Below are positions 4,737 through 20,000 of a stretch of DNA of 20,000 nucleotides, in pieces. Every line of letters starts with the position of its first letter. Position 1 is the first letter of the stretch. Location of the stretch: contig MU271424.1 of NCBI GenBank assembly GCA_021432655.1, positions 47,198 to 67,197 of the forward strand, read 5' to 3'. The notes beneath the pieces are model-generated. The model was not told the origin of the DNA and did not search any database. It saw only the letters and a list, made by a program, of their open reading frames with translations. A program made the position numbers and the translations under genes. The DNA is from Atractiella rhizophila (Eukaryota).

Positions 4737-5820
4737 ATGCCCTATTGTTGCCGTCGATTCTTTGTCAGCCATGGCGACCTATGGAAGCATTTGGCAATGT
4801 CTCGCAACCATAATTGGTGTTCTGGTGCGTCTTTCGGCTCAGTTGCGCATTCCCATCACTTGGAAGACGGCCTGACAATGTCTGTCGGATAGAATGCAAT
4901 GAGGATTTCAATACCTCATTCGACCTTCGCGAGCACAAGCTGAACTCCAACAGGCATGCACTTTGTGGAATTTGCGATATAGAGTTCGACAATCACGACG
5001 ACTTAGAATATCACCAAAATGTGGAACATCCGGTTCATTGCGGCATCATATTCTCTTCTCCAGATGCGTACGATGATCACTGCGAAAACCAACATGTGTA
5101 TTGTCGACAGTGCCAAAGGTTTTTCTCGAATCACGACAATCTCAAAAGTGTGAGTAACGATTCTGGCCTAAGACTTAATTGATATTTCTGTGCAGCACCT
5201 TAGATCATTCATTCATACGAAGAAGACTGTGCGCTGCCTAATGGCTGGTTGTGGTGCCGTTTTCGTTTCCCATGCAGCGCTGGTGTTGCACCTTGAAGCT
5301 GGGGCTTGCGCTAGTGGCATAACAAGGCCAAAGGTTGACCGGTGTAAGGGCTTCCTCTCTCGCGTTCTCACACGAATCTGAATTGACGTATCATTTCAAG
5401 TCATCGTCGAAGCGGATAAGAAGAACATCGTCACTAACCCAAACCGAAAGATCTCGACGATTGGAAACAAAAAGAGTTCTCTAGCCTCCTATCTTGCGAA
5501 CGAAAATGCCTGGAACGGACGGGCATACGAATGTTACCTCTGTTATCGGGAGTTTTACAGGTCCGTCCAGTCTCTGACCATTCTATGCATCCTCATCCTG
5601 AGTCGATCAACTTGTCCATTAAAGTCTCCAGCCCTTGCGCGCACATCTAGCCTCTCCTCGTCATGCGGACAAGATTTATCGCTGCTTGGAGTGCAAGAAA
5701 GGGTTTACCGCTCTCTCAGGTCTTTGGCAACATGTTGAGAATGGGAATTGTGGCGTCCAGAGTGCCACGAAGCAGGCCATGGCACAACTCCTTGATAGTA
5801 TCCAACGAATGGTCTTATGA
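4737..5820 (+). CDS. Multi-C2H2 zinc-finger protein, paralog A, ~282 aa; exons 4737-4824, 4893-5149, 5196-5343, 5401-5560, 5625-5820
   Basis: Repeated CxxC-F-L-H-H units, plus HLEAGAC, AWNGRAYECYLC, HLASPRH and SGLWQHVE motifs. Canonical introns; 849 nt in frame. Confidence 0.85.
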
Positions 5821-6293
5821 ATTGCGTATTTTACCACTTCTCCGACATCAATCTTGGAAACAAAATAGTTATGGCGTCTCTCGACCACGATCTCCCAACG
5901 CTTCCAAGCACAGCATTAGATCTCACTTCTTATTCCGATCGCTGTTCTGCGAAGCATAATGTTGGACTTATAGAGAGCCAGTTAGTTCAGGTTCTTTCCG
6001 TCGTTATCCTGCATTGTAGTTATTTCCACATGAAACGAACAGACACTCCGCCTTGGTGATGTGGCTGTTTCGTGGGCCATTCTTCCCAGTCTAATTTAAC
6101 AAGCTAGCATAAATGGGAGTTGTCTTGACAGGACAGCCCAGGTGGTACCGTATTATACCGAGCCGCTCGAGATCGACAAACAAATTGGAGTCTCTGTTAT
6201 TTAACAAGTTGTTTCTCCTTCAGTTGGAACGCGTCGCTCACGTCCGTGGAGCAGACCTTAAATACAGCAGTCCAGACGGATGGCCTATCAAAC

Positions 6294-7396
6294 ATGGCGT
6301 ACTGCTCGCAATGCGACCGTTACTTCGTCCACTCCGACGCACTACAACAGCATGTTTCAAACTCTCAAAACCACGTAACATTGTTCTATTGCAGTGACTG
6401 TGATCGGGAATTTAGCTCTCATCATGCATTGCAGCAACATCTGTCTAGTGCTCGTGTTCACACTGACGCTCACTGCTCTGACTGCAACCGCTACTTTTCT
6501 AGTCAAGACGGCCTCGAACAGCATTTGTCAACTTCACACAAACATATTCAATATCCCTGGTGCGACGGTATGTGTTCATCTAGCTCACGGTCATCTTTTG
6601 TTCATTCTTGTTCAAGTGTGTAATCGAGCATTTTCGACTTATGAAGCTCTCCGTGCACACGAAACCTCCTCCAAGAAGCACAATTATTGTGGTGATTGTG
6701 ACAAAGTGTTCCAGACACGGGACCAACTTAACACTGTAAGCTCTCTTGCGAAATGTAACCTCGTAAACTCAGGTTGGAAGCCTTCAGCATCTTCGCTCGT
6801 CAATTCACAATTCCAGAGACATTGAATGTCCAATGACGAAGTGTTCTGCCCGCTTTGTTACTCATTCTGCGCTCGTCCTACATCTAGAATCTGGGTCGTG
6901 CACCAGTGGCTTAAACAGGGCAATGATCGATACCTGTTCGTCATGAGGTTCTTCTTCTTCCACAGCGATTTGTCTGAGTAGAGGAGTAGATGTAATGCGA
7001 GTGGACAGAACTCATGTTATAACGAATCCTCGCCGCATGATCGCAGGGTCAACTCTTCTCTCCCCTCCGACCTTCCAGGCAAATGAATACTCATGGAATG
7101 GCGACGCGTATGAGTGCTACTTATGCCACTCAGAATTCAGGACGTAAGCTGTTCAGTCAATTAAGAGCGACTGCCCATTCATCTTCACGCACAGTCTTAC
7201 ATCCCTAAATCAGCATTTGGCATCACCACGCCATGCAGACGAAAATTATTCTTGCCCTGCATGCAAGAAAGACTTCACGACGCTTTCCGGCCTTTGGCAA
7301 CATTGCGAAGCCGAGAAATGTGGAGTCCAGAGGTTCAGCAAAGCTAGGAAGATGATGGAGCAGCTACTAGAGGGAACGAGGAGGCTTACGATATAA
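6294..7396 (+). CDS. Multi-C2H2 zinc-finger protein, paralog B, ~298 aa; exons 6294-6567, 6617-6735, 6788-6935, 6990-7143, 7195-7396
   Basis: Three tandem YCSxCxRxF...LxQH fingers in exon 1, plus HLESGSC, SWNGDAYECYLC, HLASPRH and SGLWQHCE. Intron phases match paralog A; 897 nt in frame. Confidence 0.87.
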
Positions 7397-7591
7397 GACT
7401 AAGATTTCTGTACTGAGTTACTGAGTTCTCGCTTGTTTGCCACAGGATCCCGATTCAATTTTGGGGTAATTAGGTAATTGCACTGAAATGCAAGAGTTGA
7501 GATGCGTATATACACCACCATGAATAAGTTATATATTAGCTCTAGAGCAAAGGATTAAGTCTTGTACCCGAGACCTTGTCTAAGTGTTAGA

Positions 7592-10383
7592 TTACTTTTT
7601 CGATCCTCCAGCCCTAAACTTCTTGTAGTCTTCCATCATTTCCTTCTGCACTGATGCCATCACAGGATCGTGTTTCAGGTATTCCATTGTGAACTCTCCC
7701 TTTCCTTGCGTCTGACCCCTCAGAAAAGCGGAATCTAAAATTTAATCGTCAATATGCAATGTAAAAGGCACAGGCAAGGGACGCACAACCAAACATATCG
7801 TTCAAGCTCACTTCAGCGGTTAGAGTGAACTCGTCCTCCCCAATCTCTGTGTCTAAAATGTTTCCTCTTCTGGAGTTGATACCGCCAATTACATCACCTA
7901 TCAATGATGGAAAGTTAATATGTTAAACTTGTGTGAGGGGAAAAAGCACGCACCCTGGAACTCGATTGGCGCGATAACCTCTACGCGCATGATTGGTTCA
8001 AGGATGACGGGACTGGCCTGATTGTAGACTTCACGGAATGCACCAGCAGCGGCAGCACGGAAAGCCCATTCTGAAGAATCCACGATATGATGGAGACCGT
8101 CTTGCATCACCATTCGACACATCGTCACGGGGTATCCAGCGAGACCTCCGCGGGTAAGGGCGTCTTGGAATCCCTGTTGTCCGCTCAGACAGGCCTGAAG
8201 GAGATATTAACCTTTTCACATCCAGGTATGTATTCGAAAGGAATGTTGCCAGATGTGACATGATTCCAGAACTCGTGGTCCTTATCATCCACCCTCTCTT
8301 CTAGAGGTTCGATTCGTCCAATGACCCTTGCGAATTGTCCTCTTCCACCAGTCTGCTTCTTATGGGTATAATTGAACTCTGCCGCCTCCGTGATCGCCTC
8401 CTTATAGGCGACCCTGGGACGTCCAGAGACAGTTTCGACGTTATATTCTCGCTTCATCCGCTCGATATAGATCTCGAGATGCAGCTCACCCATTCCGCTG
8501 ATAATCGTCTCTTGACTATCGGGATCGACGTGGACGCGGAAAGTTGGGTCTTCGCGCTGGAAGCGCTGCAGGGCTTTGCTGAAATGAGGTGTTTCTTGGC
8601 CCCTTGGCCGGATGGCTAGGGAAACGACGGGGTCGGGGACAAACATCGAGCTCTGTGGGATGCATGCGTCTCTCGTTAACGGGTTCTGCATGAAAGAAGG
8701 GGAAGTAGAGACGAACCATGGTCAGCTCACTCCCGTTGCTAGCTGTTGTAAGGGTATCTCCAGACGCGCACTCAACGCCAAAGATTGCCGCAATCTCTCC
8801 AGCACCAACCTGATCTACTTCCTCCATCTCTTCACTATGCATTCTCACCAACTTTGGAACCTTGGTCTTTTTCCCAGTCCTCACGTTTACCACAATCGTG
8901 CCCTTGGTCAACACACCCTGATATATCCTCACGTAAGTGAGTTGTCCAAACCGGGACTCTTCCAATTTGAACGCCAATGCAAGAAGAGGCCCAGTGGCGG
9001 TGGGAACGAGAGGGACAGAAACGCTAGTTTGTTGCGGCTTCGGGACTGTGAGTGCGTTTGACGAGACTTCGTAAGGAGCAGGAAGGTAAGAACAGACTCC
9101 GTCAAGGAGCGGTTGGACAGCCAAATTAGATAGCGCTGATCCCATGAAGACTGGTGTGAACCGACGAGAGATGGTAGCGCGTCGAATGGCCGACTGTTCA
9201 CAACATCAAAACATCACAAATGCTCGCCGACGAAAATGGGAACGAACAGCAAGATCCTCGTTAGTTATTGGTTCTTCGGCAATGAATTTATCTCCCAATT
9301 CCTCGTCTGCATCAGCAACGCACTCGACGAGCTCCGCTCGATATTTATCCACCGTCTCCTTCAGGTTTTCTGGAATTTCCTCACTTCTCAGTAGCTCAAT
9401 CCTATTCGAGAAGCAAATCCAGTCAGCTTAAAGAAATAAAAAGTAACGAACGACAAACCCCTTGGTCCCTCCGTTTCTGTAACACACGCCCCAAACCAAA
9501 TCCACCACTCCTTCAAACGTGTCTTCACTCCCAATTGGCACCTGTGCGAGCGCTGCATTCAGCTTAAGTTTGTTCCGTAGCTGTCCAAGGACTTTGAAGG
9601 GATTTGCGCCAGGCCTACATTCCGAAGCAACCGGGCCCATAAGTATGCTTGGAAGTGAAGAAGGGAACAGGACTCACCGATCCATTTTGTTGACGAAACA
9701 TAACCGTGGAATATCATATCGCTTCATTTGGCGGTCAACGGTGATTGTTTGACTTTGAACTCCAGATACGGCGCAGAGCACGAGTACTGCGCCATCCAAG
9801 ACTCGAAGAGCTCGTTCGACCTCAATCGTGAAGTCGACGTGGCCTATTCGCGCACTTCGTCAGCACTCAGGTTTTGAACGGAACTCGAATGAAATGTACC
9901 AGGAGTGTCAATGATATTGAACCAATGTTTGTTACCCTTCACCCCGTCCACCTTTGCGCCATCTCCCTTGATATCCCATTCGCAAAAAGTCGCCGCCGAC
10001 TTAATGGTGATACCTTTCTCCCTCTCCAACTCCATGCTATCCATCTTCGCTCCTACTTCATCCTTCCCCCTCACCTCATGAATTGAAGCTATCCTTCCAG
10101 TATAATAAAGCACACGCTCTGTCAAAGTTGTCTTTCCAGAGTCGATATGTGCACTAATACCCAAATTCCGTAAAGGAGCGAGACGCGCATAGTCTGCCGT
10201 ATTTAGACTACGCTCTGTCAAAGTTGTCTTTCCAGAGTCGATATGTGCACTAATACCCAAATTCCGTAAAGGAGCGAGACGCGCATAGTCTGCCGTATTT
10301 AGACTGAGCGTGGATGGTGCGGAAGTCGAGGCATAGCGCCGAAAGGACTGCCCTAAACGGGGGAGCAGGCGTAGGGGCAGCAT
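7592..10383 (-). CDS. MEF1: Mitochondrial translation elongation factor G1, 783 aa as sequenced (751 without the duplication); exons 10383-9900, 9843-9678, 9614-9459, 9401-9248, 9193-8717, 8652-8212, 8173-7954, 7897-7787, 7734-7592
   Basis: Arg/Leu/Ser-rich presequence; G1 [74 protein letters not shown]. Exons total 2352 nt in frame. Confidence 0.96.
10114..10305. repeat. Perfect tandem duplication, 2 x 96 bp (10114-10209 and 10210-10305), inside MEF1 exon 1
   Basis: The two copies are identical base for base. The protein shows [32 protein letters not shown] twice. Confidence 0.97.
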
Positions 10384-11170
10384 GTATGGTCGAAAGTGTG
10401 GTCAAAAAAGTTTCCTCATAAGGTTTGGGACCTTTGCAAAGAAGGCTCGCATAAAGAAGCATTCGTCGCCAAACAGAAGGCTCGAATTCGCAACTTTGCC
10501 AGTCTGCTTTTTACGATCACGGCTTGGAACAGTTTTGGTGTGTATTGGTGTGTATTATTGCTTCGAGAGTTGTTGATGGGCGCATAATTGCTAGTGTTGA
10601 GGGGTCCCCAGTGAGTCCCCGTTTTAGTGAAGTAGGGGATGTGGCCTCGATGGTGGCCGTCATTTGCTCTTTTTTTTCAAGGTTATATGATGTGTTCGCT
10701 CTGAAGAACGCTTGGAAAGTCTCCCTATGATCAAAAGAAGTGGTGTCCTTAGAAGAAGGATCCTAATTCCCACTTCATATCTGTAGCGTCTCCTCCCGCC
10801 TTCGCTTCTGCTATCAAGATGCACTCTGCCCTTTGTGCATCTACCCGGTTCAGAAATGGTATATAGGCATCTTCCTCAGCCTCCAAATTTGAAGTTGTTC
10901 AACGGAGTTGACTCCTTGTTGCACCGGAGCCGTGAAGTTGAGTCGTGGACCAGCTCGTGAGTATAGTGTCGGTCGCCTAATCGCAACCAGCCTGCCAAAC
11001 CTTAAAATTGCTCCCTCAGTTTCTATCCTGGCGACTATCTGTCTGTGAAATATGCTCTAAAGGAGCCTTAGATTAAAACCTACAGACAACTTTTTGGAAA
11101 GTCTTCTTCCTGCGGAGCAATTTTTTTTTTCACTGTGAGATTTGGAACAAAGCACTCTTGTACGTGCTAT

Positions 11171-11306
11171 TGTATGTCAGGTGACCCATTGTGCGCCTGA
11201 CTGTATGTCAGGTGACCCATTGTGCGCCTGACTGTATGTCAGGTGACCCACTGTGCGTCTGACTGTACGTTAGTGACTCATTATGTCGAACGGTACGTCA
11301 GGTGAC
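11171..11306. repeat. 31-bp minisatellite TGTATGTCAGGTGACCCATTGTGCGCCTGAC, about 4.5 copies decaying rightward
   Basis: Units start at 11171 and 11202 (identical), 11233 (2 mismatches), 11264 (degenerate) and about 11293 (partial). Confidence 0.92.
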
Positions 11307-11649
11307 ACTGTTTGTGCAAAGAGTGTCGTCAGTCGTCACCATTTGATGCTGAATCAAATGCAACTGAAGCAATACTGTTTACAGCTTCCACAGGCACGCT
11401 CAACATGATGTCAGATAGACGGTATATTACAAACATATTCTTCCTTAACAATTTAATTCTACTAATACATTCTTGCAAAATTGTGCATCACACCATTCTT
11501 TCTTCACATGTACCTTGAACAGCTCCAGCCTCTTGAACTGGCAAAAAAAAATTTGGAAAAATTTGGAACATAATTCATCAACCATCATCAATGAGTCATG
11601 CTAAGGCACTGTTGTTGGGACTAGGTGACCGTCACCATAGCTTTGAGTG

Positions 11650-17876: not shown

Positions 17877-20000
17877 TCAGCGCCTCTTCTCCCTCTTAGC
17901 TCTTCCACCAGGAGCAGCACCTTTGCGATCAGCCTGCCGCCGATTTTTTGTATCCACTTGATCGTAAAAGTTGGTAGCCTTTTTCTTGCTTGTCTTCATC
18001 CTCTTCTCCTTTGTAAGCTTTGAATCAGGCTCGTCGTCATCGAAGTCGGCAGCTATTCCAACAGCGATTCACGTTCAGCGACCTAAAGAACTGAAGACTA
18101 AAGAGACCTACCTCGTTTCTTCCCTTTCGGCGGTACCTGGGCCTTCATTGATGCCTGCGCAGCTTTCGATCCAACTTTGGATTTTGGCTTGGATTTGGAA
18201 GATTCGGCTGGTGGAGGGGTATTGACGAAGATTTCAACCGACTGTTCGCTCTCTTCATCCCAGCCATCTAAATCTTCATCGCCATCCTCATCCTCATCAG
18301 CGTCCTCGTCCTCGTCCTCGACAGCATGCATGAGGCGTTCCACTTTGCTACTGATAGACTTCGTCGGCGATGTGCGACCATTGTTCATAAGGTCATCCCA
18401 ATCGATCTCCTCTTCATCACCCTCTTCCTCTATCTCGTCTTCCTGCTCAGCGACAGCGGATGTATCTTCCGCCTCCTCTTCATCGCCCTCATCTTCCTCC
18501 AGGAAACGGCCCTTCTCTCGCACCACCTGGTGTAGTGGTTGAGCAACTGCTTTAAGCCTACCAACCTCCACTTCAGGGTTCTTCGCGGTATTCTTCTCCT
18601 TTTTCTTCTCTGTCACCTTTCTACCAGCATCTTCTTCTCAGTACCGTCTTGCCCTTTCGATTCTGTCTCAGGGGGACGCTCAAAATACGGAATCCTCCCC
18701 CGTATCCAGTCGTTGAGCACCATGATGGAGGTTGTTCTCAAATCTGCTTCTCCACCCTTCAACAAGCGACCGCTCTTCCGTGAGAGTACGTCAAGAAAAT
18801 CCTCGGAGTCCCGTCCCACTTCCATGCATCGTGGAGACCGTAAGTTCGCCGAATGTAGTCAGGTTTAACCCGTGCGAGAAGGGGAGCAATGTGATCTTGT
18901 GGAGAGGACAAATGTTCGACTCGGACGACGCCTTTCAACACCTTCTGTGCTTCGGTATCGCGAGCGGAAGCAGGAACGATACCAGGACAGTCGATGAGGT
19001 AGATACGGCGCATGAGAGTAATATATTGCCACACCTGCTCAGAAGCGTAACTCATCAGTATGTAGGATGCTGTCGAGTGTAAATCACTGACTTTCGTCTC
19101 TCCGGGAATTGGCGCAACATTGCACACCTTCTTTTTCTTCAAAGTATTGATAATACTCGACTTCCCGACATTAGGATATCCGAAAAATCCCACAGAGATC
19201 TGTTTTTTGTCGTTGAAAAGAGTGGAGAATTGGCGGAGGAGCGATATGAGGGAACCTTTCCCAAATGAGTTGTTGATGGATGCGTGGAAGGCGATGGTCG
19301 GATTGAACTGAGAAAGGTATTTGACCCATCGCGCCTATGTCAGTTTTCAACTATGTGTTAGTATTGTCATTGTGAGGACTTGAAATAATTATGTGCGAGT
19401 ATTAACTAAGAAGTGCGGCACGTCTTTCCCTTTTTAAGAGGAAATCGACTAGCCTGTCTTTCAACTGCAAGTCCGAACTTCTACTCTTTTAAAACTTTCG
19501 ATCTTCCACAAACGTAACGGTCATTCCCTCATGTTGTCCCTTGATAGGGTTAGGAGGACCTGACTTGTTGTGGTGCAAGGAATGCCTTGAAAAATGATGA
19601 AAAAGACTCACAGCTACCCAACCAGGGACCAGATCGATCTTATTGAGTACCCAAACAAGCTTCTTCCCACGCTTTTCCTTCGCCAAATATTTCTCAATGT
19701 GCTCGCAGCGAGTACCCAAAGGATCTCTCGCATCCAGGACATTGATCAAGACATCGGAAGAATCAATGACCTATTCGTCTCGTCTCTCAGCTTTGACGAC
19801 CACAGAGGACACAAACTCACCTTGTACAATTCCCCCCAAATCCTCTTCGACGTTCCTGCGCTGAGAATGTAATCCGGATTCACATCGTTTAACTGCATTT
19901 CCTCCTCCACGCCCTCCACGGCATCCACGGGCTGGGCTTCTGCTGGTCCATCAATTGCAACCTTCGAACTGCTTGCCACTGGCTCAGCCGCCGTTTTCGC
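17877..20000 (-). CDS. NOG2: Nucleolar GTP-binding protein 2 (circularly permuted GTPase, pre-60S assembly), 5' end beyond the window; introns 19820-19771, 19611-19335, 19091-19035, 18111-18053; two apparent 1-nt deletions
   Basis: [91 protein letters not shown], an acidic tract and basic C-terminus [11 protein letters not shown] at 17879-17877. Confidence 0.95.
19389..19575 (-). ncRNA. snR191: Intronic box H/ACA snoRNA, snR191/U19 (SNORA74)-like guide for LSU rRNA helix 69 pseudouridines
   Basis: Two hairpins. Pocket 1 is AGUCA (19565-19561) / GUUAC (19518-19514) around stem GGUC/GACC. Pocket 2 is AGAGU (19487-19483) / UAGUUA (19408-19403) around stem AGAAGU/ACUUCU. The ACA box (19394-19392) lies 14 nt from pocket 2. 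The host is the NOG2 intron, as in yeast. Confidence 0.88.

Follow-up and report, generated by a model that had tools for sequence, protein, structure and literature searches.

An in-frame P-loop duplication in the mitochondrial EF-G gene of an Atractiella rhizophila assembly, very probably an unmerged contig overlap

The EF-G1mt gene and its tandem repeat

The window, by which we mean the whole 20,000-nucleotide stretch of DNA analysed, corresponds to C245:47198-67197 in a 51.5-Mb assembly of 1998 pieces. On its minus strand it carries a gene which, as judged from sequence comparison, is EF-G1mt (presumably MEF1 in yeast, the name also used by the first-pass annotation). Exon 1 occupies positions 9900-10383 from the presumed start ATG and contains G1, G2 and the repeat that is the subject of this report; exons 2-9 follow within 7592-9843 (9678-9843, 9459-9614, 9248-9401, 8717-9193, 8212-8652, 7954-8173, 7787-7897 and 7592-7734). 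The eight introns were taken from splice joints in contigs of the sequencing runs X3 and X4, and all of them are GT-AG after adjustment. Elsewhere in the window, plus-strand frames rich in C-x2-C and H-x3-5-H at 5000-7400 apparently belong, by eye, to a multi-exon C2H2 zinc-finger gene or a pair of such genes, and minus-strand frames at 17900-20000 resemble circularly permuted GTPases such as Nog2.

The spliced product is 783 aa long as assembled and 751 aa long with one copy of the repeat, and its frame is open to the normal stop. All three matches at E <= 1e-20 in a structure search are mitochondrial EF-G (PDB 6YDP, 6YDW and 6VLZ), which bears out the gene call made in the first-pass annotation. 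The NCBIfam model TIGR00484 (EF-G) ranks first for all four pieces searched, with scores below the whole-protein cut-off because only exons served as query. The Pfam G domain (PF00009) is above cut-off, as are domains II, III and IV (PF03144/PF22042, PF14492, PF03764) in the two exons scanned, and the spliced frame shows what we take to be the motifs G1 to G5 in order. The N-terminal 25 residues contain many R, L and S and no acidic residues, and are a candidate mitochondrial targeting peptide. With one copy, the protein resembles the three solved EF-G1mt structures in its G1 region, which is nearly identical in alignment (E = 3e-29), and it is like EF-G1mt in its length of 751 aa and in the presence of G1-G5 and domains II-IV; as assembled, it differs from EF-G1mt by 32 extra residues and a second G1 motif, neither of which is found in the other two haplotypes described below.

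These extra residues are encoded by a tandem pair of identical 96-bp copies at 10114-10209 and 10210-10305 (Tandem Repeats Finder, TRF: period 96, 2.0 copies, 100% match, 0 indels), and the same pair was recovered by a separate repeat search of the window. Its exactness is far beyond chance. Identity ends at both edges of the unit, so that there is no microhomology at 10114-10305. The minus-strand frame from ATG 10383 is uninterrupted, and the motif AHIDSGKT stands at residues 46 and 78. The first-pass annotation, which had described an exact in-frame 96-bp duplication with an intact frame and no obvious flanking microhomology, is accurate in these respects. It was also right that the duplicated 32 residues hold the G1 motif AHIDSGKT, while its placement of the unit needs a small correction, as the unit starts about 12 residues ahead of the first beta-strand motif. 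What these searches confirm is the assembled sequence of the repeat, not the DNA of the organism. A literature search found no report of an internal P-loop duplication in mitochondrial EF-G.

Copy number in other haplotypes and in sequencing-run contigs

The locus is found in two further contigs of the assembly, C298 and C425, at about 98% identity and with conserved gene order. The unit is single in each. The G1 motif count is one in both contigs and two in the window as assembled, and a 60-mer spanning the junction between the copies is absent from C298 and from C425. C425 encodes an intact 751-aa protein with one residue different from the one-copy form of the window, and C298 spans 581 codons without a stop. 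We also considered a frameshifted or dead gene and rejected this, as none of the three haplotypes shows a break in the reading frame over the part that it covers. With one copy the gene is almost certainly a normal, ordinary EF-G1mt of 751 aa with a single P-loop.

Each of C245, C298 and C425 has private variants, and there are therefore at least three haplotypes. These three haplotypes, 1-2% apart at the locus itself and 1-4% apart over the region, occur together in one assembly and in one DNA sample. This points to a heterokaryotic (multinucleate) or polyploid organism, or to a mixed culture, and redundant haplotypes inflate the 51-Mb assembly. Two heterozygous sites bracket the unit. Two bases before it, at 10111, the window has C where C298 and C425 have T; directly after it, at 10306, C425 has A where the window and C298 have G. 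The 98-base stretch between 10111 and 10306 is identical in all three haplotypes. Private alleles of the window, among them those at 10111 and 10396-10419, lie on both sides of the repeat, and a haplotype switch at the seam was rejected on these grounds.

The sequencing runs provide a second source of copy-number evidence. All 16 runs listed are sets of contigs, and contigs can drop rare forms. Four runs (X1-X4) were used, the other twelve having small shares; X1 and X2 are DNA runs of one sample, which is possibly the source of the assembly. In each of X1 and X2 one contig crosses the site while skipping exactly 96 bases, at depths of 186.7 and 266.9. The bin depths over the repeat, 79.4 and 113.5, equal 71/167 of these values, and there is therefore no other X1 or X2 contig on the repeat. 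No X1 or X2 contig fits the junction at 10209/10210, in a data type from which rare forms may have been dropped. Contigs of X1, X2 and X3 enter the unit unbroken at its left edge. In X3, which has another organism label and spliced contigs, 9899-10209 is covered once and 10239-10405 not at all, a weak hint only; the X4 contig ends at 10093 and is uninformative on the repeat. We regard the single-copy run contigs as support for an assembly artefact and not as proof.

The same runs show that the window haplotype itself is present in the sample. A 369-base contig equals window positions 10623-10991 without difference, over which C298 and C425 are only 88% alike, and it stands at 0.39 and 0.38 of the depth of a shared contig in the two runs. 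Alleles private to C298 and alleles private to C425 are also present in run contigs.

These observations bear on the possibility that one of the haplotypes really carries a tandem duplication of very recent origin. The C-terminal copy would then complete a normal G domain, leaving 32 extra residues between the targeting peptide and the G domain, and the duplicated allele would be protected by intact counterparts in other nuclei or on other chromosomes. In favour of this, the 783-aa frame runs to the normal stop, the window is a haplotype of its own to the left and to the right of the repeat, the DNA runs contain this haplotype at 0.38-0.39 of the shared depth, and the existence of two intact alleles makes tolerance plausible; moreover, contigs cannot demonstrate absence, and a loop present in about a third of the molecules could have been dropped from them. 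Against it, the junction finds no fitting contig in X1 or X2, and the contigs of X1, X2 and X3 pass the left edge without a break. It would also require three coincidences: that the repeat unit is exactly 96 bases long, that it stops right at a heterozygous site and that its seam base is an A. All three features recur at unrelated seams of the assembly (see below). We consider a real duplication highly improbable. Were it nevertheless to exist, it would be a fresh in-frame duplication of 32 residues giving EF-G1mt a second beta1-P-loop-helix element beside two intact alleles, an equally improbable state of affairs, and would offer a natural test of whether the G domain exchanges or excludes a duplicate P-loop strand.

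Recurrent seams across the assembly

The repeat can be decomposed as 95 bases, an A at 10210, the same 95 bases and then the variant base 10306. There is no N between the copies, only this single A, which matches the upstream homolog (base 10114) and not the downstream one. We surveyed 865,298 bases in 68 stretches for comparable structures; three contigs were chosen for the EF-G locus and the rest regardless of content. A census of head-to-tail joins yielded eight positions with a base belonging to neither copy, and this base is A in all eight. Two of these were set aside, L073:7954 for its short flanks and L080:5828 as part of a multi-copy array, together with the other rows from L080, which are natural-looking arrays and include one join without A (4031/4032). 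Twelve two-copy seams remain, with periods from 96 to 3160 bases, and A stands at the join in 12 of 12, although in four of them the A sits inside a short overlap and the seam was placed on it by the analyst. Where the seam base is unmatched it is A in six of six cases (chance 0.256^6 = 3e-4), and at the remaining six seams, 10210 included, the joining A is matched by a base of a neighbouring copy as well. In this last respect the A at 10210 is unlike that of the six informative seams elsewhere, where it behaves as a filler.

The length of the identical flanks follows a pattern as well. Exactly 95 identical bases border one side of the seam in five of the 12 cases. Among the seams with a period above 96, three of ten have an exact 95, compared with an expectation of about 0.004 per side (p ~7e-5). 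Tandem copies that are identical or almost so, separated by one A, are found at L088:6017-6207, L073:6858-7072, L055:9115-9739 and L051:8799-9557. The first of these (C575) is an exact twin of the repeat in the window, as it reads 95 + A + 95 with an A matching neither neighbour. For the L088, L073 and L055 seams, a search of the assembly for a second contig returned only the self-match.

Runs of A on the plus strand are consistent with the same picture: among runs of 12 or more there are five A-runs and no T-runs, 95-base repeats adjoin one run of 36 A and one of 11 A, and a 94-base repeat adjoins one of 24 A. Longer gaps in the assembly stay N. This points to short or negative gaps being written as A in this assembly. 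Searches for papers on assembler artefacts turned up no account in which an A is used to fill a gap.

Head-to-tail stacks of 2-3 kb at 95-99.9% identity were observed at C245:39171-44412, C298:30247-34398, C425:7675-13150 and L031-L032 (C150). Two of these longer stacks, in C245 and C425, escaped the census because of nearby variants and are compatible with an A by eye; each of the two is single in the other contig. The 2-3 kb stacks are probably two alleles placed end to end at a seam, and as such would yield false tandem genes. Multi-copy arrays with periods near 162, 201 and 402 bases at L080:500-5900 (C495) are natural-looking and are without an A seam.

Origin of the repeat and its implications

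Taken with the single-copy contigs, the recurrent seam geometry leads us to conclude that the duplicated P-loop is, with a probability of about 0.97, an assembly artefact, in which two contigs with a 95-base overlap were linked through a single filler base and left unmerged. When k is 96, branches of a de Bruijn graph terminate contigs, and the edge that follows a branch starts with the preceding 95 bases. The stretch of 98 bases common to the three haplotypes is barely longer than a 96-base k-mer, and the haplotype paths would meet there. The left contig would have stopped at the branch point, so that the first copy on the plus strand (10114-10209) would be its last 96 bases, of which 10115-10209 form the 95-base overlap; that a contig ends at the repeat is deduced from this geometry. 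The right contig would have opened with the k-1 = 95 bases immediately before the variant at 10306, that is, with the second copy of the overlap at 10211-10305, which makes 10306 its 96th base. The scaffolder would then have assigned a negative gap, written as one filler letter that reads A, and the overlap would have stayed unmerged as 95 + 1 + 95. The A at 10210 presumably replaced a gap letter, and since it equals base 10114, the repeat looks like a clean 96-mer. The reading frame survives by accident, because 96 is divisible by three.

The excerpts of PMC5368935 give k = 96 for ALLPATHS-LG, report an excess of variants at position k counted from the ends of contigs, and describe negative gap sizes for contigs that overlap. 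From the seam pattern together with this k value we infer that ALLPATHS-LG was the assembler used here. The likeness to the excerpted account extends to the position of a variant at base 96 of the putative right contig, to the exact 95-base matches that border other seams and to the negative gaps given to overlapping contigs. The same excerpts are concerned with variant calls and not with tandem copies, and they blame unresolved repeats, whereas the "repeat" here is a stretch common to three haplotypes; they contain no mention of an A filler.

The A at the seam allows a more specific version of the artefact, in which the A at 10210 is the allele of C425: the left contig would have kept the k-mer of the A branch and been joined to the G branch with the overlap unremoved. 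C425 does have an A right after the unit, and the branches of a k = 96 bubble would read 95 + A and 95 + G. As an A also stands at every other seam, even where neither neighbouring copy has one, a filler suffices, and we regard the allelic origin of the A as unlikely. It is a form of the unmerged overlap and not an alternative biology, and its share is counted within the probability given above.

The case also resembles published false duplications at assembly gaps. As far as the excerpts of PMC9516828 describe them, it is of the false exon gain type, with a boundary between homozygous and heterozygous sequence (10306 and 10111), haplotypes kept as separate contigs in the assembly, an unsupported junction (here by run contigs only) and an altered coding sequence. 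It differs from those excerpted cases in comprising 96 bases only, within one exon, and in having one A instead of N as the gap. The cases excerpted from PMC9516828 were judged by read depth and discordant pairs, whereas ours is judged from contigs.

The first-pass annotation had offered a two-P-loop protein arising from a recent, tolerated duplication. This proposal runs against the single copy in C298, C425 and the X1/X2 contigs and against a repeat geometry that is that of a recurring unmerged overlap, whereas its accompanying caution that an artefact was no less likely holds. For the gene itself there is no biological consequence, as it is an ordinary EF-G1mt. For the assembly, a 96-base seam preserves the reading frame and gaps can be masked as a single A, so that false in-frame duplications, tandem genes and chimeric genes will recur. 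The 12 seams in 865 kb correspond, by rough extrapolation, to several hundred in the 51-Mb assembly, and any finding of tandem duplication in this genome calls for a look at whether the joining base is an A and whether an exact flank of 95 bases adjoins it.

The haplotypes also differ upstream of the EF-G gene, where an insertion of about 670 bp at 10964-11636 is absent from C298 and C425. It has imperfect terminal inverted repeats by eye and an internal 31-bp tandem array at 11171-11282, and it gives 23 matches in the assembly and a high depth in X1/X2. It has the appearance of a non-autonomous transposon whose presence varies among the haplotypes.
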